The notes under the pieces: generated by a model | What the model was told of the DNA's origin: nothing | Databases searched by the model: none | What the model saw: only the letters and a program-made list of their open reading frames with translations | Program-made: the position numbers and the translations under genes | IMG/VR virus record: IMGVR_UViG_2905639403_000004 | Coordinates: 9,376 to 73,375 of that record | Source: a virus | Lineage: Duplodnaviria > Caudoviricetes | DNA length: 64,000 bases | Strand: one strand, 5' to 3' | Part shown: piece by piece, positions 8,409 through 64,000 of the stretch | How the letters are laid out: each line of letters opens with the position of its first letter | How positions within the stretch are numbered: the stretch's first letter is position 1

Positions 8409-10306
8409 TATTTACCACCTCCAAACATTGCCTTGAAGAAGTCACGTTTTCCTTTTGCGTCTAGGTCATTAAGCGGGTTATATCCATCATCATGATAGTT
8501 TTCGAAGTAGAATTTTGCCTGCGCATGGGCATTAATAAGCGCATCGGTCGTATCAATATGATCACTCGTGCGATTTTGACGGTCAATCTTGACCGAACCG
8601 CCGCGATCTTCTACCAGTACAGCATTGTTTAGCCCATCAATCAGCAGCGGATCGTTCAACATCGAAATGTTGCCATTAATAAACAGATTCTGAAAATCCT
8701 TGGTAGGTTCATTCAGCTTGAACGAGGTAGGAGGCAAAGGAAACCATTGCCACTGCGGTTGATAATTCTCCAGTTTCTTTTCTAGCCATTCACCGTGGTT
8801 TGGATCAGCAATGATGAATTTTACTTTGAGCCGATGTTGATTAACGTAATCAACCAACCACTGGTAAACCTGATCGGTGTTGATTACGCCTGATGCAAGA
8901 TTCGTAATATCCACAAAACCTTCATCTTGCAATTTAAGGTAATCTAATCCGTCCTGTTTCGACTTGGCTTCAATGGTTTTTGCCTGTGCAAATGGAATGA
9001 AGCTATGCTGCTGAACATGAAACATGTGTTTATCATGATCAGTGTACGGATAAATGAAGCCAAAAGACGTATTGTCATTGGTCTGCGACCCGTCAAACCC
9101 TATGAACACATCACGTCCATTCACATCGAAATGGTCGATAATACTGCGCTGAATGTTGTCTAGGGACAAATAGCTGTTTTGAAATCGCCGGCTCCATAGA
9201 TTTAGGGACTTATTTACGAAGGTTTCAAGTGTTCCTTCACGTTCGTTATCGTTGCGATCTTGGTTAAGCGCATTTTGAAGGTTGTCCCGTTTACTCTTTT
9301 GCAGCTCAAGCAGATTAGGATTAGATTTTGCCCATGTTTCGGGTTCAAATACCTCATCCTCCGAGTCCTGAGAATAAATTACTTGGAATACGTTGTCAGC
9401 GTCTCGAACGGCGTCATGCTCAATGGCAGCCCTAGTTACGTCTTCATCATTCTTAAACTTGACCTTGATATCAGGGTAAGCTGTTGAAATCTTGACGAAC
9501 ATTCGGTTCTTAATGCCATTTTGCCCGGATGTAATCTGCTTTAAGGTCTCATTCAAGGCTGGCCTCAAGTTACCAATTTCATCATAAACAGCGATTGCAT
9601 TGTGGAAACTATCAAAGCCACCGCCTTGTGAGGTACCTTTTCGGATCGTGTTCTTAGTGTTTTTTGCAATAACTTGCGTGGTTTGAGATTCCACGCCTCG
9701 CTCTCTAGCATCATCTGCAAAGTCCGGCAGGGATAAAATTGTCTTCGCCTGCAAAGACACGTCATTGAACAGCTTGGTTGCGTGTTCACTATCGTAGCTG
9801 GCCACCAGCAAGTCCTGTGATGTCGCATTCCAGCACACTACAAAGTAGTAGAAATTGATCAGGATAGAAGCAAGCCAAGTCTTGCCCTGTTGGCGAGCAA
9901 TAGATATGTTGGAAGTTGTGAATCGAGTACCGTTGTCAACGGTTCGCCAACCAATCAAGCTATCAAGGATAAACGATTGCCATTTGAATGGCTGAATTGT
10001 TTTTGAAGTATCGTCTGGATTGGGCAGCAACCGTGAAAAGTATTCAATTGCGTTGACCATGTCTGAGCTGTATTGGTAGGGGAAATCATCATTGCCAATT
10101 CTAAGCAAATCGTTTAAGTGCCGAATACATGCCAGCTGAACGTCTCTACCAGTCATGTACTTATCCGTAAACATCACGTCATAAGCGTACCTTGTCCCTG
10201 GATCATGGTACTTATCAAACAGTCCTTGGTAATCTGATTGGTACGGCTTTACGTAGCCGCGAATATCTTGCACACCGGTAAAATCAAACGTCTGCACCAA
10301 AGCCAA
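8408..10306 (-). CDS. Terminase large subunit
   Basis: ARQQGKT Walker A, YDE Walker B, nuclease domain. Confidence 0.95.
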   Translation of the reverse strand: MALVQTFDFTGVQDIRGYVKPYQSDYQGLFDKYHDPGTRYAYDVMFTDKYMTGRDVQLACIRHLNDLLRIGNDDFPYQYSSDMVNAIEYFSRLLPNPDDTSKTIQPFKWQSFILDSLIGWRTVDNGTRFTTSNISIARQQGKTWLASILINFYYFVVCWNATSQDLLVASYDSEHATKLFNDVSLQAKTILSLPDFADDARERGVESQTTQVIAKNTKNTIRKGTSQGGGFDSFHNAIAVYDEIGNLRPALNETLKQITSGQNGIKNRMFVKISTAYPDIKVKFKNDEDVTRAAIEHDAVRDADNVFQVIYSQDSEDEVFEPETWAKSNPNLLELQKSKRDNLQNALNQDRNDNEREGTLETFVNKSLNLWSRRFQNSYLSLDNIQRSIIDHFDVNGRDVFIGFDGSQTNDNTSFGFIYPYTDHDKHMFHVQQHSFIPFAQAKTIEAKSKQDGLDYLKLQDEGFVDITNLASGVINTDQVYQWLVDYVNQHRLKVKFIIADPNHGEWLEKKLENYQPQWQWFPLPPTSFKLNEPTKDFQNLFINGNISMLNDPLLIDGLNNAVLVEDRGGSVKIDRQNRTSDHIDTTDALINAHAQAKFYFENYHDDGYNPLNDLDAKGKRDFFKAMFGGGK

Positions 10307-12488: not shown

Positions 12489-13019
12489 TTACACCGCCAA
12501 CTCGAAGGAAAAACCTCCGTGATATTTGCGCTTGCCACGAAGACACTTAGATACAGCGCTTCGGTCTAGTCCAAGAAGTTCCGCGGCTTTTCTGGCACTT
12601 TCAAAGAAATAGCGATGTCCCGAGCCACTTACCGCATAGATTGGACGCTCGTTTGCCTTTGCCGCGCGCTCGGTGCGAGTACCGTAATTGGTATTATATA
12701 ATGCTGTACACCACTCAAGATTTTCAACTAAGTTGTTGCCTTTGTCCTCGTCCATGTGATTGACTTCTGGCAAGTTGTCGGGATTGTCTAAAAATGCTGC
12801 GGCTACCAAGCGATGAATGAACACTTGCTTTATGCTTCTGTCCCAATATAAATTGACCTTGAGGTACCCGTTTCTATTTGGAAAGCTGGCGATCATCTTC
12901 CCTTTTAAGCGGCGTCCTTGTGCGTCTTCGCGATCAAGGCTTCTTACTCTGCCCATATTGCTAACTTGGTATAGTCCCTCAAAGCCTTCAATATCTTTCC
13001 AAATTTCAGTTGAGTTCAT
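12489..13019 (-). CDS. NUMOD4-HNH homing endonuclease
   Basis: EIWKDI...YQVSNMGRVRS, HRLVA, VNH..NN..NLEW. Confidence 0.92.
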   Translation of the reverse strand: MNSTEIWKDIEGFEGLYQVSNMGRVRSLDREDAQGRRLKGKMIASFPNRNGYLKVNLYWDRSIKQVFIHRLVAAAFLDNPDNLPEVNHMDEDKGNNLVENLEWCTALYNTNYGTRTERAAKANERPIYAVSGSGHRYFFESARKAAELLGLDRSAVSKCLRGKRKYHGGFSFELAV

Positions 13020-14223
13020 AAGTACACCTCAATCTTTCGTCGTCATAAACGAACGCATACAGCAAATGCTTGCCCGTGGTGAAGCCATTCTTAATCTCAT
13101 AGGGATCATTTGGTTTCGCAGTTCCAAGCTGGCGCCACATAATGCCACGATCATCTTTAAACCGCTCGCTATGATAGTGGCCTGAGTGAAGTTCGTATGT
13201 TTTTGCCATATTGAATATCTTTTTGTACTCAAATGGAAAAAGCCCTGTCAGCTTGTCCTTGGCTACATCTCCATGGGCGAGCATAATGCCAACATGCCCT
13301 AGCAAGTATGCACAGCGCCAGTCGGTTGCCAAATTACTGTCATTGAGATCAACGTGGACTTGTGGATAGCGATCTATCAGCGCATAAAGAAAAGCGTATT
13401 CGAGATCACCTGAATGGTTACCGAACACGCTCTTGATTGAGACGCGATTGCTATATTCAATTGCCAGCGGAATAATCTGATCAAACAACTTCACAGCATC
13501 ATGGAATGCCTGACGCATGTTTGCGTGATCTAGTTGCGTTCCTCTAACCGTTTGTGTTACATGAATCTGATCACTATGGAATAGATCTCCCAATTGCTCG
13601 ATCACAATTTCGTTGTAGCCGTCCATGATGATCTCTCTAAGTTGACTCACCATGTCTTTTAGATCGGCGAATGTTGTCCAGCCAAAATGCAGGTCAGGCA
13701 ATGGGATGACTAAGTTGCGATCGCCCGATTTCTTCATGCCGTAATTGACCGGAATGATTTTGCCGTTGAATGCTTCAGCCATTTCACTTATCGATAAGCC
13801 TTGTTTCGGCTTTACGCGAATATGAATGCTGTACTGCGGAACTGTGCCATTTTCGGTACTATGCTGCTCATACACTTTGTAGTCGCCTAAGACCATCTCG
13901 AACTTATCAGGATCGTATCCACACAACTCCATCAAAGTCCGTGGGTCTTTATTTGGCTCATGCTTGAGTCTCATTAAGGCCGTGACTGTTTGACTACCAT
14001 CAGCATTAAGAGCTACTTTTCTATCAACGGGTTGGCTCTTTCTATCTGTTTTCGCTGAATCGTATTCATTCTTCAATGGCTTTTGGAACTCGATACCAAG
14101 CCGTCTTGCTTTGCCTTGAAGCGCATCATAGCTAATCCCGAGTTTGTCGGCTGTCTCGCGTCTGGTAAAGCCTTCAGAGGCGAGCTTCCTAATGTCACCA
14201 ATCTGTTCATCTGTCCATTGCAT
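13006..14223 (-). CDS. HTH plus calcineurin-like metallophosphoesterase
   Basis: N-terminal HTH; DLH, GD, GNH, HG, GHYH motifs. Confidence 0.85.
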   Translation of the reverse strand: MQWTDEQIGDIRKLASEGFTRRETADKLGISYDALQGKARRLGIEFQKPLKNEYDSAKTDRKSQPVDRKVALNADGSQTVTALMRLKHEPNKDPRTLMELCGYDPDKFEMVLGDYKVYEQHSTENGTVPQYSIHIRVKPKQGLSISEMAEAFNGKIIPVNYGMKKSGDRNLVIPLPDLHFGWTTFADLKDMVSQLREIIMDGYNEIVIEQLGDLFHSDQIHVTQTVRGTQLDHANMRQAFHDAVKLFDQIIPLAIEYSNRVSIKSVFGNHSGDLEYAFLYALIDRYPQVHVDLNDSNLATDWRCAYLLGHVGIMLAHGDVAKDKLTGLFPFEYKKIFNMAKTYELHSGHYHSERFKDDRGIMWRQLGTAKPNDPYEIKNGFTTGKHLLYAFVYDDERLRCTYELN

Positions 14224-14246
14224 CTACTCGCCTCCTGAAATATAAT
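14218..14246 (+). promoter_or_regulatory. Sigma70 promoter of sRNA cassette 1
   Basis: TTGCAT-17bp-TATAAT; conserved at 62373-62401. Confidence 0.8.
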
Positions 14247-14251
14247 AATTG

Positions 14252-14326
14252 AGGCACATGCAATCATGTGCTGCTCTTTTCATTTTTATTCCTCAGGCTC
14301 TCGGACTCGACCCCGAGAGCTTTTTT
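14252..14326 (+). ncRNA. Putative sRNA P1-1
   Basis: Promoter, 5' hairpin GCACATG/CATGTGC, CTTTTCATTTTTATTCCTC segment, terminator GCTCTCGG..CCGAGAGC-T6. Confidence 0.65.
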
Positions 14327-14327
14327 G

Positions 14328-14356
14328 TTGCTTAAAAGATTTCAATAAGCTAAAAT
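14328..14356 (+). promoter_or_regulatory. Sigma70 promoter of sRNA cassette 2
   Basis: TTGCTT-17bp-TAAAAT; boxes identical at 62494-62522 while spacer varies. Confidence 0.75.
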
Positions 14357-14361
14357 TAAAT

Positions 14362-14440
14362 TGTTCCCAATAAATACTCATTTTCACTCCTCGGTACTAC
14401 CCCACTCCTTAGCTCTCGGCCCCCAACCGAGGGCTTTTTT
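14362..14440 (+). ncRNA. Putative sRNA P1-2
   Basis: TACTCATTTTCACTCCTC segment; terminator GCTCTCGG..CCGAGGGC-T6. Confidence 0.65.
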
Positions 14441-14475
14441 AGTATCCTTATACACAGGATGTGCTATTATGTAGC

Positions 14476-14578
14476 CATGAGCAGTGGCCTTTCTCCTCCA
14501 AGTCAATCGCTGCTACTCACACAAGTATTTCGTTTTTTCATCCTTTTGGCCCTTGGACTGGTCTCTGAGGGCTTTTTT
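14476..14578 (+). ncRNA. Putative sRNA P1-3
   Basis: Extended -10 TGcTATTAT at 14462-14470; TTTCTCCTCC and CGTTTTTTCATCC segments; terminator GCCCTTGG..CTGAGGGC-T6. Confidence 0.65.
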
Positions 14579-14585
14579 GTTGCAT

Positions 14586-14617
14586 AAAAATAGCACCTCA
14601 CCGGTTGGCGGAGTGCT
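14586..14617 (-). terminator. Intrinsic terminator after moron gene
   Basis: AGCAC..GTGCT hairpin with T-tract on minus strand; similar copy at ~63206-63237. Confidence 0.5.
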
Positions 14618-14750
14618 CGTGTAAATAAAAAGACGCCGTGGCGTCTTGATATCTCACCGATTTGTCTTTCGTTTGATGTCGCTTGATCCGAGATTACAAA
14701 CAGAAAAGCACAAACTAAATATTCCTAGAAAAAGACTAAAAAGAATCATT

Positions 14751-15422
14751 TTATTTCCCTCCATATACGTTCAAATCGCCACTGACTCTTTCATTCAAAT
14801 CCTTGCCGTTCTTTTCTTGGAATTTTTGATTGAACTTTAAGTATTTTGTGGCTAGATCATTCCTCTTCTGCAAAGCATTTCTGTCGTCAAGAAGAACCCG
14901 TCTAACTAAAGCCAATGAATTCATGAAGTCTTCCCGGTCTCCTGCAGTTAGATAGAAAGACTGCTTGTACTTTTTATTTTCAAACAGCTCAGTTACTTTG
15001 GCATTTAATCGATAAATGACATCAGCTAAGTCCTTGCGATAGACTTGGTAATTCATTGAATTGCGTTGAGGCAAACGAGTTATTTGAATATCTTCAATTA
15101 CTTGCAAATTTTGTTTCAAGCTATATATTTGATAGTCAATTTGATTTTTTGTAACGGCTATGTGATCTGACTCTGCAACTTTTCCAGTCAAAATATCAAT
15201 GTCAGTTTCGGCTAGTTTAGAAGAGTTTACCAACGCTTGATTTGACCTTTGCATGTATTCTTCATTTGCTGTCCTATAACTATTCCACGTATTCAAACTG
15301 ATCGCAACCGAAACTATTGATATTATTATTGGAATAATCTTGTCCCACTTTGTCTTCATTACGTGGAATATTCCTAAGACAAAATCACCAATTCGCTCAT
15401 ACAGTGGCAGCTTCACTTTCAA
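14751..15422 (-). CDS. AT-rich membrane-anchored moron protein
   Basis: One N-terminal TM (IIPIIISIVSVAISL), GAGGTG RBS. Confidence 0.7.
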   Translation of the reverse strand: MKVKLPLYERIGDFVLGIFHVMKTKWDKIIPIIISIVSVAISLNTWNSYRTANEEYMQRSNQALVNSSKLAETDIDILTGKVAESDHIAVTKNQIDYQIYSLKQNLQVIEDIQITRLPQRNSMNYQVYRKDLADVIYRLNAKVTELFENKKYKQSFYLTAGDREDFMNSLALVRRVLLDDRNALQKRNDLATKYLKFNQKFQEKNGKDLNERVSGDLNVYGGK

Positions 15423-15429
15423 TCACCTC

Positions 15430-15685
15430 AAAAAAATAGTACTCCAGCGTGAACTGGAATACTACATTGAGGTGATATCTGTGCTTCATATGTCTGCTGC
15501 TCGCTCTCCCAGTGTCAGATAGGGTCATCGCAAGCTGTGTCCGGTCGCTAAACTGGACAATGTGGCATGCGGGAATCGAACCCACCTGACTATCTCAGCC
15601 AGTCCTCATTGCCACGCCTTGCCACAGCTTTATCATCACTGAGGCTCGGAGGAAAAACGCGGTGTCTCAGGTTTCTCACCTTTGG
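15430..15685 (-). ncRNA. Structured late leader RNA containing a D-armless tRNA-like element (15562-15615)
   Basis: GTGGCA/TGCCAC stem, T arm GTGGG-TTCGATT-CCCGC, further hairpins, terminator TAGTATTCCAG..CTGGAGTACTA-T. Confidence 0.5.
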
Positions 15686-15738
15686 CACAATACCATCATA
15701 TGACGGAAAAACAGTTGAAAGGTCTCACAAAGGTCTCA
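15683..15738 (-). promoter_or_regulatory. ArpU-dependent late promoter with direct repeats
   Basis: TGAGACCTTT x2 upstream of TATGAT -10; core matches 63541-63565. Confidence 0.6.
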
Positions 15739-16162
15739 TCTCGATTTCAACCAATGGACAAATCTCAGCGAATGCGATTAGCGCTTCTCGTTTTGTTCGA
15801 TAATACTGGGCTTTTGATAAAAACAGCTTGTCCATTATTTGCTGGTCACTATATCGTTTGGTTAAGTAAGAACTTGTTAATATAAGCCGATGATTCGCTG
15901 AATCCAGAGATTCGATAGCACCTTCACAGCACGCTATATAGTACAGCTCGTCAGCGTGCGATACGAGCTTTTCCTCGGCTTTGTTGCCATAGCTAGGTGA
16001 CTTGGGCATGCCGTCCATCACGGGGCTTCTGAGCGCTATTTTGGTGCGTTGAGCGAGCCGCTTGTGATGCCAGTAGTTCCCCAAGACCTCTTTGGCGTTT
16101 TCAATTGTTTTGTCATGATCAATTGGGCTAAAATATCTCGTTGCTCGCACCACTGCGTCCAC
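15725..16162 (-). CDS. ArpU-family late transcriptional activator
   Basis: SPVMDGMPK, YYRTKREALIAFAE. Confidence 0.9.
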   Translation of the reverse strand: MDAVVRATRYFSPIDHDKTIENAKEVLGNYWHHKRLAQRTKIALRSPVMDGMPKSPSYGNKAEEKLVSHADELYYIACCEGAIESLDSANHRLILTSSYLTKRYSDQQIMDKLFLSKAQYYRTKREALIAFAEICPLVEIEMRPL

Positions 16163-17006: not shown

Positions 17007-17374
17007 TGCTTTCCCTCCAGTAGCTGTTTGTCTTCAAAAATGTTGCCAATGACCTCTAGAGTTTTGCCAGATCCAATCGTTCCAAAATAATAATCACCAA
17101 CACCAAAAGCAGCATATCTAGGATCGTATTGAACCTCCATTACTTTCCCATATTCGTTTTTCACGATATCGCCTTCGTAGATTTCCCGCCCGTTCTTGTC
17201 GTGGCGGCCAACGTACTGCATCAAATGGGCTTCTTCGTCAATTAGTTCAATGCCATTTTTGCCATCATCAGCAGTTACCCAAATACGGCCATCAATATCC
17301 CATTCAATATTACTGACTGGATATATTTTGTGGTTGTGACTGCTATACGCTCTGAACTTAATCTCTCGTTTCAT
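17003..17374 (-). CDS. YopX family protein
   Basis: REIKFRA, DKNGREIYEGDIV, EVIGNIFE. Confidence 0.9.
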   Translation of the reverse strand: MKREIKFRAYSSHNHKIYPVSNIEWDIDGRIWVTADDGKNGIELIDEEAHLMQYVGRHDKNGREIYEGDIVKNEYGKVMEVQYDPRYAAFGVGDYYFGTIGSGKTLEVIGNIFEDKQLLEGKQ

Positions 17375-17481
17375 TTCTCCGCCTCCAGTTTCACGATTTC
17401 TTCCATGTTCCACATTGCTAAATACATCCTGGCTTTCCTTCCGCAGCGCCGCTTGGTGTATGTCTTCATGGTGATGTACTC

Positions 17482-17691
17482 CTACTCAAATTCGATTGCT
17501 GGTATGTTCAGGTGCTCAATCAAGCCGAGGCGTTCCAACCGCTCATAGTTGAGACGCTCGCAGTATAAATCTGCTTCGTACTGAGACCTGAATTCCTTGA
17601 TTTTGGTTTCGCCATTGCGGCCCACAATCTTGAATTTCATTTTTTTATCAATCCTCTCCAGTTGGCTCATTTCTTCAAAATGTTTACTCAT
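17482..17691 (-). CDS. Hypothetical phage protein
   Basis: ORF with GGAGG RBS. Confidence 0.65.
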   Translation of the reverse strand: MSKHFEEMSQLERIDKKMKFKIVGRNGETKIKEFRSQYEADLYCERLNYERLERLGLIEHLNIPAIEFE

Positions 17692-18080
17692 TTTTCTTCC
17701 TCCAATTTCACGATTTCGCCGGTTTCCTCAACGCGCCAGGAACCTAGCAGCCAAGCACGGGCGAAAGCATTGCTTGAGCTGATAATCCAGCTTTCCACAT
17801 CATCCGTTAGTTTTTTAAACCCTTGACTGTGAATGAATTTGAAGCTGTACATCATGTAGAGCTGAATATCGTATGACTTACCCCACTGGATGTATTCACT
17901 AACTGCTTCCGGAATCACCGGCAGATCATCTGGCAAGGCGGCAGCGTAACGAGCACTATAATCAGACAGGCTTTCCGACCAATCTTCAAATGACCCGTCC
18001 CTAGGCAAACTACTAATAAAATTTTGTTTCCAGTCGTCTAGTACCACCTTGAACACGTCCCGCTTCGTCTCATTGCTCAT
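17688..18080 (-). CDS. DUF1642-like protein
   Basis: PVIPEAVSEYI..FARAWL. Confidence 0.75.
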   Translation of the reverse strand: MSNETKRDVFKVVLDDWKQNFISSLPRDGSFEDWSESLSDYSARYAAALPDDLPVIPEAVSEYIQWGKSYDIQLYMMYSFKFIHSQGFKKLTDDVESWIISSSNAFARAWLLGSWRVEETGEIVKLEEEK

Positions 18081-18585
18081 CGTCAGTCACCTCTTCTTTC
18101 TCGCAGTCTTGCAAACCGTAATGTTCGATCTCTGCTTCGGTGAACTTGCCGCGAAGTTTTTTATCCGCTGGGCAAATCGTCAGCAAATATACTTCACTAT
18201 CCTTGTAATACCAAACATCTTTGGTATGTGGATCCTTGACGTTGTATTTCTTATCCTTTGCCACGGTGTAGCCGTTGACGTAAGCTTCCATAATCAATTT
18301 TTCATCATCAGAACAGAAAGTGTGACGAACAATATAGCTTGCTGGCCATGCCTCATCACGTGCGACTTCAACGATTTCGGCTTGCTCTTTGGTTAGCACT
18401 ACCTTTTCAGGCTCCTCAATCAAAGTGACAACGTGGCCACCATAATAATTAGCCATAGCCTCAGCACTATCTTCGCTGACCAGAACCGGACAATACGATT
18501 TGGACAATGGCAGAAATTTTGCATTTTCACAGTCAAAATATTTTCCTACATCGTTCTTTACCGCGTACAGTTTTTCTTTGCTCAT
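18070..18585 (-). CDS. DUF1642-like protein
   Basis: EAYVNGYTV, KFTEAEI. Confidence 0.7.
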   Translation of the reverse strand: MSKEKLYAVKNDVGKYFDCENAKFLPLSKSYCPVLVSEDSAEAMANYYGGHVVTLIEEPEKVVLTKEQAEIVEVARDEAWPASYIVRHTFCSDDEKLIMEAYVNGYTVAKDKKYNVKDPHTKDVWYYKDSEVYLLTICPADKKLRGKFTEAEIEHYGLQDCEKEEVTDDEQ

Positions 18586-18821
18586 TTTTCTTTCTCGAAT
18601 TTTCTACCACACATTGGACAATAATTTATAGCAATTCCTCTTTGATAGACAATATCAGGTAAGCCAATACTAACAGTCAATTCATGCCCACTATCTTGCC
18701 GCATTAGTCCCACAAGAAGAAAACGTAAATGTTTATCTGCAAAGTTTGTCTCTTCATACATTTTAAGTTGCGAACTGTAAGCATACTTATCTCTAAATTT
18801 ACAATATTCACATTCGCTCAT
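18582..18821 (-). CDS. Zinc-binding phage protein
   Basis: CEYC ... CPMCGR. Confidence 0.65.
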   Translation of the reverse strand: MSECEYCKFRDKYAYSSQLKMYEETNFADKHLRFLLVGLMRQDSGHELTVSIGLPDIVYQRGIAINYCPMCGRKFEKEK

Positions 18822-19225
18822 TTTTCGTCCTCCAACTTGTGTAAGATGTTCATGCTATGAATGTGTGCCAGCGTATCATCAAGTTCCTCTTGCGAATGGA
18901 TTAATGGAATGCTAAAGTGCGCGTCATCTCCCTTGTATTCTTCTGGAATATGATGGCCAATGTCATATGCTGTGTGGCAACGACCATCCGGTGTACCATC
19001 TAACACGATGACTGCAATGTCATTTGACGGCTCCCATTCAACAATCATCAAGTTAGGAATCTTAAAGATTTCCCGTGCGTAATTGCAAAGCACGATATTG
19101 TACTTTCGGAAGTTTTCATGATCATTGTCAACTAAGCAGTTACGCGTAACCATCGCCAACTGATATAGCCCCTGATTCCAGTCATAGTGGTCATGTGGCA
19201 ATGCAAATGCTGCTGTTACTTTCAT
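18818..19225 (-). CDS. Hypothetical phage protein
   Basis: ORF with GGAGG RBS. Confidence 0.65.
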   Translation of the reverse strand: MKVTAAFALPHDHYDWNQGLYQLAMVTRNCLVDNDHENFRKYNIVLCNYAREIFKIPNLMIVEWEPSNDIAVIVLDGTPDGRCHTAYDIGHHIPEEYKGDDAHFSIPLIHSQEELDDTLAHIHSMNILHKLEDEK

Positions 19226-61837: not shown

Positions 61838-62227
61838 TTATTCGTGTGTTGCATGCCGTTCCTTTTTAAGCAGCTGCTTATGGCTTCGTAGGGGGGACCG
61901 ACTAACTGGTACTAACTGACCATGAGCATCAAACATAACGTCAGAACGAACAGCTGCCGTCTTCTCAAAGTGTTCCTCTTGGTGACAATCGAAGCAAAGA
62001 TACTCTAAGTTGTTCCAGTTAAGCGTGATGCTTGGGTCATTGATGTTGTCTGCTGTAATGTAGTGCTTGTGGTGGACGATGTAGCCGGGCTTGATGATAC
62101 CTCGCTTCAAGCAGCGCTCACACAATCCACCAACACTGGCAATGTAGGCAGCACGTGTTTTCTTCCACTCTTTACTGTGATAGAACGGCTCGCTGATCTC
62201 TCGTGGTACCATGGCCATCATATCCAC
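61838..62227 (-). CDS. Packaging-associated HNH endonuclease
   Basis: FYHSKEWK, CERC, VHH, NLEYLC..CH. Confidence 0.9.
   Translation of the reverse strand: MDMMAMVPREISEPFYHSKEWKKTRAAYIASVGGLCERCLKRGIIKPGYIVHHKHYITADNINDPSITLNWNNLEYLCFDCHQEEHFEKTAAVRSDVMFDAHGQLVPVSRSPLRSHKQLLKKERHATHE
61849..61858 (-). other. Candidate cos site CGGCATGCAA
   Basis: GC-rich near-palindrome between HNH and terS, flanked by G/C tracts; position typical of cos. Confidence 0.4.
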
Positions 62228-62276
62228 CTCCCAATGACATAGTAAAAGGACGACCGTTTGGCCGTCCTTCCATCAA

Positions 62277-62378
62277 TCATATTGTTAATATAACTAGCTT
62301 GTCGGCCGTCTCTCGTCTGGTAAAGCCTTCAGAGGCGAGCTTCCTAATGCCACTGATTTGTTCATCTGTCCATTGCAT
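62277..62378 (-). pseudogene. 33-codon remnant of the HTH-metallophosphoesterase gene
   Basis: MQWTDEQISGIRKLASEGFTRRETADKL nearly identical to start of 13006-14223, then stop. Confidence 0.8.
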
Positions 62379-62404
62379 CTACTCGCCTCCTAAAATATAA
62401 TGTC

Positions 62405-62492
62405 TGTGAGCAGTTTAGCGATTCTGCTCATGTTCTCCAAAAAGAACTTCCCGAGTTCTTAAGCCCTCGGATTCGTCCCCGAGAGCTTTTTT
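62405..62492 (+). ncRNA. Putative sRNA P2-1
   Basis: TTGCAT-17-TATAAT; hairpin TGAGCAG/CTGCTCA; CATGTTCTCC; same terminator family; body unrelated to P1-1. Confidence 0.6.
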
Positions 62493-62527
62493 GTTGCTTA
62501 AAAAATTTCGATGAGTTAAAATTAAAT

Positions 62528-62606
62528 TGTTCCCAACAGATACTCATTTTCACTCCTCGGTAATACCCTATCTTTAAGCTCTCGGCCCCCAACCGAGGGC
62601 TTTTTT
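62528..62606 (+). ncRNA. Putative sRNA P2-2 (homologue of P1-2)
   Basis: TTGCTT-17-TAAAAT; identical ATACTCATTTTCACTCCTCGGTA and terminator. Confidence 0.65.
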
Positions 62607-62641
62607 AGTATCCTTATACAAGGAATGTGCTATTATGTATA

Positions 62642-62745
62642 GCGTGAGCAGTGGCTTTTCTCCTCCAAGTCAATCGCTACTGTTCACACATATGTTTCGT
62701 TTTTTCATCCTTTTGGCCCTTGGACTGGTCTCTGAGGGCTTTTTT
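62642..62745 (+). ncRNA. Putative sRNA P2-3 (homologue of P1-3)
   Basis: TGcTATTAT; conserved TTTCTCCTCCAAGTCAATCGCT and TTTCGTTTTTTCATCC; identical terminator. Confidence 0.65.
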
Positions 62746-62799
62746 GTTGCACTTTGTTCAAGCTTATATGATAATTGATGTTAAAAGGAGGTAATATCT

Positions 62800-63018
62800 A
62801 TGAGTTTAGATGGTAAAGTCGACAGCACCAAGGACAAGATCTCCGGTAAAGCAAAAGAAGTTGAAGGTAAAGTAACGGGTGATAAGGCTCGCGAAACACA
62901 GGGCAAAGCAGAAGGCATACTTGGTAAAGCCAAGGAAAAGCTTGATGATGCCAAAGATGCTGTTAAAGACACAGTAGATGATGTTAAAAACAAGCTCAGC
63001 ACAGATAAAAAAGACTAA
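62800..63018 (+). CDS. csbD: CsbD-family stress protein (moron)
   Basis: KDKISGKAKEVEGKVTGD..QGKAE; AAGGAGG RBS; own promoter and terminator. Confidence 0.9.
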   Translation: MSLDGKVDSTKDKISGKAKEVEGKVTGDKARETQGKAEGILGKAKEKLDDAKDAVKDTVDDVKNKLSTDKKD

Positions 63019-63122
63019 TTAACTGGCCGGCAAAGTGTCGGCTTTTTTGTCGCTTTTTTAAACCTGTACAAATCCGGTACAAGAGCTTTACGTATTTGAT
63101 AAACTCATCTGCTATACTGATC

Positions 63123-63199
63123 GTGCAAGGCAAGCCACCCTTGCAATCACATTTACTTCCCTCATGTATGCCTTCAGCCTGGGTAGCTGGAGGTTTTTT
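63123..63199 (+). ncRNA. Putative sRNA P2-4
   Basis: TGcTATACT at 63110-63118; hairpin TGCAAGG/CCTTGCA; CATTTACTTCCCTC; terminator GCCTTCAGC..GCTGGAGGT-T. Confidence 0.6.
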
Positions 63200-63288
63200 G
63201 TTGTATAAAAATAGCACCTCACCGTTTGGCGAAGTGCATATATTGGTTTGGTGACAAATGTCGAATACAACCGACTGTAGCTTATTAA

Positions 63289-63414
63289 TCAAGCAGTTGT
63301 TGCAGTTGGACCTTTTTCTTTTTGCTTCTTCTTTTCCTTCTGCTTCTTTAACTTGTCCTTCAGGTCTTTATATATATCGCGTGGTGTTGGCAACTTGAAC
63401 ACGTAAACAACCAT
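63289..63414 (-). CDS. Small lysine-rich peptide (41 aa)
   Basis: Read manually: MVVYVFKLPTPRDIYKDLKDKLKKQKEKKKQKEKGPTATTA; GAGGTG RBS. Confidence 0.5.
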   Translation of the reverse strand: MVVYVFKLPTPRDIYKDLKDKLKKQKEKKKQKEKGPTATTA

Positions 63415-63540
63415 ATTAATCACCTCTTTAGAAAAAAGCATAAGACAAATCTAAAGATATTACATCGGTCTTGCGAACGTTTCAGGCTTACTGATTATTC
63501 CATGAAGAGGAAAAACGCGATTCTTAGGTTTCTCACCTTT

Positions 63541-63606
63541 GGCACAATACCATCATATGACGGAAATACGGTCGGTTGTTCCCAACTTATTCCCAACATT
63601 TTCCCA
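63541..63606 (-). promoter_or_regulatory. ArpU-dependent late promoter with direct repeats
   Basis: GTTGGGAA x2 plus TGGGAA upstream of same TATGAT core as prophage 1. Confidence 0.6.
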
Positions 63607-63607
63607 C

Positions 63608-64000
63608 CTAGGTTTTGTGGGGTTGCTCAACTAACTCACACCAATCAGCAAATGCTAATAGTGCTTCCTTGAAGTCTCTATAATAAGCAGATTTGCTCAA
63701 ATGTAGTTCCTCAGCTATCAGCCACCATGGCTTACGTTGATCTAGGGAAACGAGGTAGGTTTCGGTTAAAATAATTCTGTATTTTTCTAACTCGACTGAT
63801 CTAATAGCTTTTTCACAGCAAGCTACATATCGAAGCTCGTCAGCGTGCGATACGAGCTTTTCCTCAGCTTTGTTGCCATAGCTAGGTGACTTGGGCATGC
63901 CGTCCATCACGGGGCTTCTGAGCGCTATTTTGGTGCGTTGAGCGAGCCGCTTGTGATGCCAGTAGTTCCCCAAGACCTCTTTGGCGTTTTCAATTGTTTT
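63608..64000 (-). CDS. ArpU-family late activator (5' end outside window)
   Basis: N-terminal half identical to 15725-16162. Confidence 0.9.
   Translation of the reverse strand, partial: KTIENAKEVLGNYWHHKRLAQRTKIALRSPVMDGMPKSPSYGNKAEEKLVSHADELRYVACCEKAIRSVELEKYRIILTETYLVSLDQRKPWWLIAEELHLSKSAYYRDFKEALLAFADWCELVEQPHKT

Follow-up and report, generated by a model that had tools for sequence, protein, structure and literature searches.

We have analyzed a stretch of 64,000 nucleotides (nt) of viral DNA (IMG/VR provirus record IMGVR_UViG_2905639403_000004, positions 9,376 to 73,375), hereafter called the window, which contains two neighboring prophages with their phage genes on the - strand and, on the + strand, rows of small-RNA units that form the arrays studied here. 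DNA similarity places the stretch in the Lacticaseibacillus casei/paracasei/rhamnosus group of temperate phages, with matches to 66 phage records, the closest being BH1 (92% identity over 68% of the query). The order along the - strand of prophage 2 is an ArpU/Ltr-type late activator (63608-64000, its open reading frame [ORF] being cut by the window end), a non-coding stretch, a remnant of the first late ORF with 33 codons and a GcrA-like N-terminus (62277-62378, read by eye, start codon at 62376-62378), an HNH endonuclease (61838-62227), and then the small and large terminases; the array lies, on the + strand, in the non-coding stretch between arpU and the first late ORF. In prophage 1 the counterpart of the remnant is a full ORF of 405 amino acids (aa; 13006-14223), which matches Pfam GcrA at its N-terminus (7.4e-8), and the ArpU homologue (15725-16162, - strand) matches Pfam DUF1492 (27.5 bits), a family placed in the LtrB branch of the Ltr superfamily as described in PMC3753634. 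A preliminary description of this DNA located the array in an "ArpU-to-HNH interval", a name that suits prophage 2 and fails for prophage 1, where the array abuts the 405-aa ORF.

The array of prophage 2 begins with a promoter (62373-62401: TTGCAT at 62373-62378, a 17-nt spacer and TATAAT at 62396-62401) that overlies, on the opposite strand, the start codon of the first late ORF (62376-62378) and its Shine-Dalgarno (SD) sequence (62382-62390). Unit 1, of the family abbreviated as T03 (62406-62492, ~87 nt), consists of a 5' hairpin, the unpaired segment UGUUCUCCAAAAA, a second hairpin and a terminator with its U run, and folds with -29.7 kcal/mol (z = -4.5). Unit 2 (family T01; 62529-62606, ~78 nt), behind a promoter at 62494-62522 (TTGCTT, 17-nt spacer, TAAAAT), has a long, G-poor and unstructured 5' part followed by a terminator, with the putative seed ACUCAUUUUCACUCCUC at 62542-62558 (unpaired probability 0.85). 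Unit 3 (family T05; 62644-62745, ~102 nt; fold z = -4.18) follows an extended -10 box (TGcTATTAT, 62628-62636; 9 of 11 columns invariant in 20 copies) and displays its seed loop UUUUCUCCUCCAAGUCAAUC (62656-62675) on a 12-bp 5' stem, after which come a linker and the terminator. The array of prophage 2 extends beyond 62750 to 63200, with a csbD-like gene that has its own promoter and terminator (62747-63049; ORF 62800-63018, Pfam CsbD E = 1.3e-12; terminator 63025-63043) and then a fourth RNA unit of family T07 (63110-63200), in which TGcTATACT precedes an RNA of ~76 nt (63125-63200) composed of a 5' hairpin, the unpaired segment CAUUUACUUCCCUCAUG and a terminator, with a fold z of just -1.44. 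The array of prophage 1 (14218-14580, + strand) contains T04 (~14251-14326), T01 (~14363-14440) and T05 (~14477-14578).

All seven RNAs of the window have an unpaired, G-poor and CU-rich seed, a CUCC or CCUC stretch and a terminator; five begin with a 5' hairpin, in place of which both T01 copies have the long unstructured 5' part. The predicted unpaired probability of the seeds is 0.75-0.97 vs 0.35-0.63 for the remainder of the RNAs. The seeds of five families are the exact complement of an SD sequence, 5-7 nt and AUG.

The two arrays and their relatives in other phages

The preliminary description proposed that the same three-unit array lies at the same place in both prophages, which our comparison bears out (62373-62750 vs 14218-14580, both on the + strand). 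Repeat searches find no long DNA repeat shared by the two prophages outside the arpU-to-late-gene block, in which the whole prophage-1 counterpart spans 14141-14616: 14141-14246 is 92% identical to 62296-62401 (start of the late ORF and unit-1 promoter), 14292-14473 is 88% identical to 62458-62639 over 182 nt (end of unit 1, unit 2 and start of unit 3) and 14478-14584 is 93% identical to 62645-62751 over 107 nt (unit 3). The head and tail genes are, as stated earlier, very divergent, the large terminases being 20% identical and two large ORFs of the structural region lacking significant similarity (E = 0.21).

In unit 1 the promoter and the terminator type are indeed retained around unrelated bodies, which cannot be aligned (38 of 51 columns differ, gaps included); the two terminators are of one type and differ at 6 of 36 positions. 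The promoter boxes, together with the anti-ribosome-binding segments and terminators of units 2 and 3, had been called identical, and this was only partly so: no difference is seen in the -35 and -10 boxes of units 1 and 2, the extended -10 of unit 3, the 17-nt seed of unit 2 and the terminator of unit 3 (0/31), but one position differs in the seed loop of unit 3 (1/20) and one in the terminator of unit 2 (1/31). The contrast drawn between varying spacers and linkers and constant elements stands, since 25 of 129 columns differ in spacers, discriminators and linkers vs 12 of 192 in boxes, seeds, stems and terminators (units 1-3 pooled, Fisher p = 0.00054, with element borders that we drew from family alignments and not blind). 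A uniform spread of substitutions, the pattern that had been named as contradicting selection on the RNA elements, was not seen, the differences within units 1-3 being element-specific.

Related loci were collected with an anchor of 26 nt spanning the start of the late ORF and its SD sequence, and a scan of IMG/VR gave at least 118 stretches. The locus set comprises 118 IMG/VR stretches, two phage records (L004 and L006) and the two window copies, thus 122 oriented loci, with 109 distinct sequences in the first 400 nt; another phage record (L005), in which the exact 26-nt junction is missing, was left out. The loci were cut at terminators and the units then clustered, which yielded eight families of RNA-like units among the matches listed: T03 (41 copies, the prophage-2 type) and T04 (34 copies, the prophage-1 type), always in first position; T01 (49 copies), always second; T05 (30 copies); T02 (42 copies), always last; T06 (15 copies); T07 (11 copies, after csbD in 10 of them); and T08 (2 copies). 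At least one RNA unit is present in 76 of the 122 loci, 65 of which are complete to the far border and contain two (22 loci), three (21), four (19) or five (3) RNA units, whereas the junction is empty in 21 loci and cut or filled with other inserts in 25. A single collinear order, namely T03 or T04, T01, T05 or T02, T06, csbD, and T07 or T08, is followed without violation in the 76 arrays. Five other loci share the architecture of prophage 2 (T03-T01-T05-csbD-T07), and one other that of prophage 1 (T04-T01-T05). A second scan with a 16-mer of the T05 loop gave 38 new loci, namely 19 unrelated chance matches and 19 true T05 copies, all of them at a distance of 227-295 nt downstream from the exact junction. 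The array query matches nine of the 37 genomes that represent species of the genus (E <= 0.001), four of them over at least 173 nt.

Because T03 occupies 41 loci and T04 34, the "swap" of unit 1 between the prophages amounts to one of two common alternatives. The bodies are exchangeable, as the preliminary description supposed, with eight families, 0 to 5 RNA units per locus and two alternative families of unit 1, and further cassette variants are present in other phages. Several discrete seed alleles (about five) were found only in T03 among the families measured. The unit variants have a mosaic block structure, as seen in the T03 family alignment, and the overall pattern agrees with the ordinary mosaicism of phages, the recombination taking place at terminator/promoter junctions that they share. 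The 27 columns of units 2-3 that differ between the two prophages also vary elsewhere (mean diversity 0.44 vs 0.14, Mann-Whitney U test p = 1.3e-10) and only 1 of these 27 is invariant elsewhere, vs 123 of the 250 identical columns, a comparison that is not a clean test of selection, given the contribution of block polymorphism shared by recombination. In two loci (L009 and L029) unit 1 is chimeric, its 5' hairpin and loop resembling those of T05 and its 3' part that of T04, which means that the RNAs are themselves made of exchangeable modules.

Strand, structure and conservation of the units

That the units are real RNA genes of the + strand we regard as very likely. A terminator scan of 62100-63700 returned seven sites, vs 1.6 +/- 1.2 in shuffled sequences, six of them on the + strand (two overlapping), and the scan of 14000-15800 also returned seven, three of which close the units of the prophage-1 array on the + strand. 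On the + strand a hairpin with a U run closes every unit at regular spacing; on the - strand the hairpins are preceded by A runs and followed by no U runs. Conserved -10 or TGn-10 boxes lie 4-7 nt upstream of each predicted RNA start, in three promoter designs: TTGCAT-17-TATAAT in T03 and T04, TTGCTT-17-TAAAAT in T01, and a TGn-extended -10 in T02, T05, T06, T07 and T08. The TATAAT box is invariant in all 43 distinct copies of unit 1 (28 of T03 and 15 of T04).

Read on the + strand, the consensus stems (RNAalifold, 131 pairs in seven families) contain 258 G·U vs 17 A·C cells, counts that are not independent events, with a G·U majority at 12 or more different pair positions; since G·U pairs would become mismatches on the - strand, structure on the + strand is favored. 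The fold z-scores of units 1-4 of prophage 2 are -4.5, -2.6, -4.2 and -1.4 on the + strand vs -4.3, -0.8, -1.3 and 0.0 on the - strand. Pairs changed on both sides amount to 11 of the 131; in T05 (17 distinct sequences) 96.3% of the cells are paired and four pairs are changed on both sides, with a covariation score of 0.173 vs 0.149 in shuffles (0-2 of 500 shuffles reach the observed values). Compensatory changes thus give modest support, the sequences being related.

The earlier proposal that selection acts on the RNA elements agrees with the distribution of diversity (15-31 distinct copies per family), which is lowest in -10 boxes, seeds and terminator stems and highest in spacers, discriminators and linkers. 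In T01 the values are 0.049 for the -35, 0.173 for the spacer, 0.075 for the -10, 0.039 for the seed (12 of 17 columns invariant in 31 copies), 0.252 for the linker and 0.05-0.07 for the terminator stems, the unpaired parts that flank the seed having 0.147 and 0.252. Equivalent values are 0.069 for the extended -10, 0.382 for the discriminator, 0.099 for the seed loop and 0.375 for the linker of T05, and 0.000 for the -10, 0.129 for the seed and 0.412 for the terminator loop of T04.

There is no conserved ORF on either strand of the units: the - strand mini-ORFs behind SD and ATG are broken, frame-shifted or read "M*" in many copies (that of T07 reads "M*"), and the + strand ORFs of 46-47 aa cross terminators and promoters. 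Coding on the - strand was rejected, the complements of SD and ATG being conserved but not the ORFs behind them, and so was a type I toxin-antitoxin system, with no conserved ORF and a longest candidate peptide that is hydrophilic and variable. Rfam gave no match at the gathering score, and its best match at E up to 10 (17.3 bits, E = 5) is noise.

Contigs at least 90% alike cover parts of 62294-63237 in all four RNA libraries considered (from four studies). The contig of library X10 over 62299-63149 has a mean depth of 204 vs 4-24 on the late genes of a closely matching prophage, and a 582-nt contig of library X12 over 62658-63203 has a depth of 9270 vs 210-570 in its neighbors; because such contigs have neither strand nor ends, may derive from carried-over DNA and have depths that are contig means not assignable to units, they constitute only a weak hint of the expression in lysogens that we infer. 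Uncovered parts of the window (late genes in libraries X1, X6 and X12) were not counted as evidence, since the strains may carry other late genes. Contigs from two studies start at 62652, 8 nt inside the 5' stem of T05, one of them with an Illumina adapter fused there.

Besides these limits of the contigs, three results speak against the reading preferred below. Neither array had a + strand promoter by a strict sigma-70 scan, because the -35 boxes of the units match 3/6 positions only, and the promoters given above are therefore our own reading of conserved -10 and TGn-10 boxes. The seed region of T03 is variable (diversity 0.286). Finally, the sequences are related and partly redundant, so that the conservation statistics overstate independence.

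Seed pairing and possible modes of action

As to mode of action and targets, the reading that we prefer, while holding it tentatively and at somewhat less than an even chance, is that the units encode trans-acting anti-Shine-Dalgarno small RNAs (sRNAs), expressed from the prophage by independent genes in a row opposite the late genes. Each unit comprises a separate putative promoter of the -10 or TGn-10 kind, in most cases a 5' hairpin, a seed that is unpaired, G-poor and CU-rich, and an intrinsic terminator, the seed being complementary to the SD sequence and often also to the spacer and AUG. Transcription of the units would take place in the resident prophage, as with the csbD gene that lies between them, and their RNAs would base-pair with host or phage mRNAs and repress the initiation of translation; T03 and T04 would be exchanged by recombination at their shared promoter and terminator. 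We favor trans action because constraint on unpaired parts is strongest in the seeds, phages can do without the arrays and csbD, a stress-protein gene, shares their site and orientation. The arrays have accessory, moron-like traits: they are present in 76 of the 122 loci, the junction is empty in 21, and csbD, oriented as the RNA units are, has a promoter and a terminator to itself; with a protein-coding gene placed and oriented like the RNA units, the interval from the ArpU/Ltr-dependent late promoter to the first late ORF resembles a general hot spot for insertions.

The searches for partners weigh against trans action. Within the window, the two arrays alone contain the complement of a T01 19-mer. 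Complements of the T01, T05 and T04 seeds, sought with up to three mismatches in four host genomes, gave the arrays and five weak matches, about as many as reversed-pattern controls, and the one 3-mismatch host match that was inspected falls within a 324-aa ORF, in antisense orientation. For nine seed variants from the seven families T01-T07, complements sought with up to two mismatches in 1.2 Mb of related phage loci were found almost only in arrays, the few extra matches of the T07 14-mer complement being close to our chance estimate. A T05 covariance model gave strong matches only at the known array places in the 37 genus genomes, and a ranking of translation initiation regions (TIRs) by seed only reached a best z of about -3 among 267 candidates in the window. 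Every copy found, moreover, sits in the late leader, a position that suits an antisense role equally well.

The best matches of the seed-only ranking cluster on four adjacent small early genes of prophage 1, with generic strong A-rich TIRs, and such partners are a lead, not evidence. Several adjacent small early genes of prophage 1 have near-identical strong initiation regions, which form the repeat families D7/D12 (17371-17400, 17683-17708, 18577-18602 and 18813-18838); three of these sites (not 18577-18602) and a start at 19225 are the best partners in the window for the T05-loop, T04 and T03 seeds. A ranking of full-length RNAs against window TIRs by duplex energy was discarded, as it produced meaningless long-loop structures. 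Also discarded was a scan of the whole genome collection with a T01 17-mer, a pattern too short for that collection to make its matches informative (92 stretches, with ~70 expected by chance, two in Lacticaseibacillus and the rest scattered over unrelated phyla).

The most serious alternative, which we consider rather unlikely, is a cis-antisense lock or immunity, in which the RNAs would chiefly pair with the late-operon leader of their own prophage or of an incoming phage that shares the cassette; the effect would come from cleavage upon pairing or from interference by convergent transcription, and a cassette swap would change the specificity of immunity. This proposal depends on the course of late transcription. 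A likely late promoter lies at the arpU stop of prophage 2 (63552-63608, - strand), with three repeats of ~11-nt period (GTGGGAA, GTTGGGAA and again GTTGGGAA; GT(G/T)GGGAA at 63576-63608) followed by TATGAT, and prophage 1 has two GAGACCTTT repeats (15725-15750). In the 31 loci that reach this region, two to four direct repeats of ~11-nt period and then a conserved TATGAT block stand directly below the arpU stop, the repeats being of five types (cores on the + strand: TAGTCCGCAA, AGGTCTCA, TTCCCAAC, GTTCGC and TGTTGCA). Direct repeats just distal to the activator gene are Ltr/ArpU binding sites in the systems described in PMC3753634, and those found here are probably activator boxes with the late promoter. 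Given these repeats, the TATGAT block and the published binding sites, late transcription very probably starts just below arpU, heading toward the array on the opposite strand. The two prophages of the window differ in box type and in the C-terminus of ArpU. The 5' end of T01 (62529-62541, TTGTTCCCAAC) equals one of the ArpU-box repeats of prophage 2 (63576-63586), an identity that is probably a coincidence, since most T01 copies have this 5' end whichever the box type.

At the far edge of the array a terminator-like hairpin followed by UAUUUUU, hereafter D8 (63214-63237, - strand; prophage-1 copy at 14593-14616), is found in 107 of the 122 loci and folds more stably on the - strand in 65 of its 66 distinct versions. 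In array-less phages D8 touches the SD sequence of the late ORF, so that the array represents an insertion between D8 and that ORF. As D8 stands between the late promoter and this ORF, late transcription would need read-through or antitermination, and the passage of late transcripts past D8 would decide whether the RNAs meet the perfectly complementary late leader. Between the late promoter and D8 of prophage 1 there is also a transfer RNA (tRNA)-like element of ~190 nt (~15480-15660, - strand) with the T-arm-like GGGTTCGATTCCC; it is present in many array-less loci too, and some matching phage records annotate tRNA-Ile or tRNA-OTHER there, while ARAGORN called no tRNA in the window.

The cis-antisense proposal thus draws on ArpU-type repeats and a -10-like TATGAT that abut the arpU stop, with the consequence that late transcripts would cross the array, on the overlap of the unit-1 promoter with the SD sequence and start codon of the first late ORF, and on the T05 seed lying in a hairpin loop, as in kissing-loop antisense RNAs. 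Antisense RNAs of prophage immunity and exclusion do exist, P1/P7 c4 and BTP1 STnc6030 being those treated in PMC12197685. What chiefly keeps the proposal alive is that all copies found sit at one site, invariably in the late leader, and that the opposite strands of the arrays are the only perfect partners of the seeds. Yet cis-antisense pairing needs no conserved seed, and the constraint on the T01, T05 and T04 seeds, their most constrained unpaired parts, therefore speaks against purely cis-antisense RNAs; so do the dispensability of the arrays (21 of 122 loci have none), the shared site and orientation of csbD, which points to a general insertion hot spot, and D8, a - strand terminator-like hairpin that intervenes between the late promoter and the array. 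A more specific version, combinatorial RNA immunity, by which the resident cassette would silence the late genes of cassette-sharing phages and its own until induction, we deem improbable; were it true, competing temperate phages of the L. casei group would escape from one another by T03/T04 swaps, T03 seed alleles and the gain and loss of units.

We give little credence to the possibility that the functional strand is that of the late leader, with SD- and AUG-like sites acting as ribosome-binding stabilizers or mini-ORFs and the + strand RNAs being secondary. The five seed families that are exact complements of SD, 5-7 nt and AUG would suit it, and the unit-1 region folds about equally on both strands (z = -4.28 on the - strand vs -4.50 on the + strand). 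The ORFs behind these starts, however, are not conserved, the asymmetry of G·U vs A·C points to the + strand, U runs follow the hairpins on that strand only, and the - strand z-scores of units 2-4 are just -0.8, -1.3 and 0.0.

Slightly less credible again is the absence of any RNA function, the units then being recombination scars of promoter-like and terminator sequences that insulate neighboring transcription units. The mosaic block structure of the variants, the empty strict promoter scan on the + strand and an identity of 88-93% in the array that is similar in the flanking pieces of arpU and the late ORF would all be compatible with scars, against which stand the element-specific conservation, the stems with compensatory changes, the fixed order in 76 of 122 loci and the RNA-library contigs that cover the array.

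The preliminary description also likened the bodies, loosely, to guides within a constant frame, as in repeats and spacers, an analogy that our data do not support, and a system of this kind resembling clustered regularly interspaced short palindromic repeats (CRISPR), with bodies as acquired spacers, is barely conceivable: promoters and terminators of one type do recur around bodies that vary from phage to phage, and T03 has about five discrete seed alleles, but there are no equal-length direct repeats (units range from 76 to ~150 nt), the frame consists of three promoter designs and several terminator types around only eight body families in fixed order, the seed ranks with the least variable parts in three of the four families measured for it (T01, T05 and T04), seeds match nothing foreign or otherwise outside the arrays in the host and phage DNA searched, and no effector gene adjoins among the ORFs listed.

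Relation to known small RNAs

To our knowledge, the small-RNA biology of Lactobacillaceae and their phages is almost unexplored. One recognizable phage site in the L. casei/paracasei/rhamnosus group offers up to five sRNA genes in natural combinations and hence an allelic set for genetics, and the catalogue of eight families in fixed order, with two first cassettes and seed alleles, points to the units and bases worth mutating first. Should the RNAs tune host translation, they would represent a novel type of lysogenic-conversion cargo carried by probiotic and dairy strains; a role in gating late genes or in excluding related phages would matter for the stability of prophages and the phage resistance of industrial cultures.

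It may be that the RNAs have been listed in print before, namely for L. casei BL23, in which RNA-seq yielded 307 putative sRNAs, including the intergenic and Northern-verified sLCB577.2- (table 1 of Mickute et al. 2021, PMC8220740). The Northern result for sLCB577.2-, as presented there, could not be tied to the present sequence, and the main text of that paper contains neither "phage" nor "tandem", has "prophage" once in a figure legend, and describes no array, cassette comparison or function. The main text of a paper on sRNAs of L. casei Zhang (PMC8249650) contains neither "phage" nor "prophage", and among the titles and abstracts that our literature searches listed, none describes an array of sRNA genes in Lacticaseibacillus phages. 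Because the RNAs may be listed already, our contribution is a comparative catalogue and not a first discovery.

The sRNAs of E. coli prophages belong to Gram-negative bacteria and are mostly Hfq-dependent. Those named DicF, Pas and svsR are accessory cargo varying in presence, copy number and sequence between strains, as described in 10.64898/2026.05.13.724894. Unlike the present ones, they are not known to form a multi-family tandem array in the late leader. P1/P7 c4 and STnc6030 of Salmonella BTP1 are RNAs of resident prophages that pair with phage transcripts and bring about immunity or superinfection exclusion, a few paired bases setting their specificity (PMC12197685); as portrayed there, they are single RNAs with demonstrated targets, whereas here two to five different RNAs stand in a row and their targets are only inferred. 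CRISPR arrays differ in having identical repeats of fixed length between unique spacers, whereas the present units measure 76 to ~150 nt and have promoters of three designs and terminators of several types.

The closest mechanistic parallel is LhrC of Listeria monocytogenes. Four of its copies are reportedly adjacent. LhrC1-5 are G-poor, carry CU-rich UCCC motifs in a hairpin loop, a single strand and the terminator loop, and block the SD region; they are several chromosomal genes under LisRK control that encode one RNA each (PMC4132741). The present units have the same layout as that described for LhrC, T01 and T02 also with C-rich terminator loops, but they form eight unrelated phage-borne families with no Rfam match, while the LhrC RNAs of that account are homologues of one RNA. 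What is new is the arrangement: a multi-family, collinear row of sRNA genes, variable in presence and absence, at one fixed site of the phages, where the first cassette is of either of two types and one family has seed alleles.

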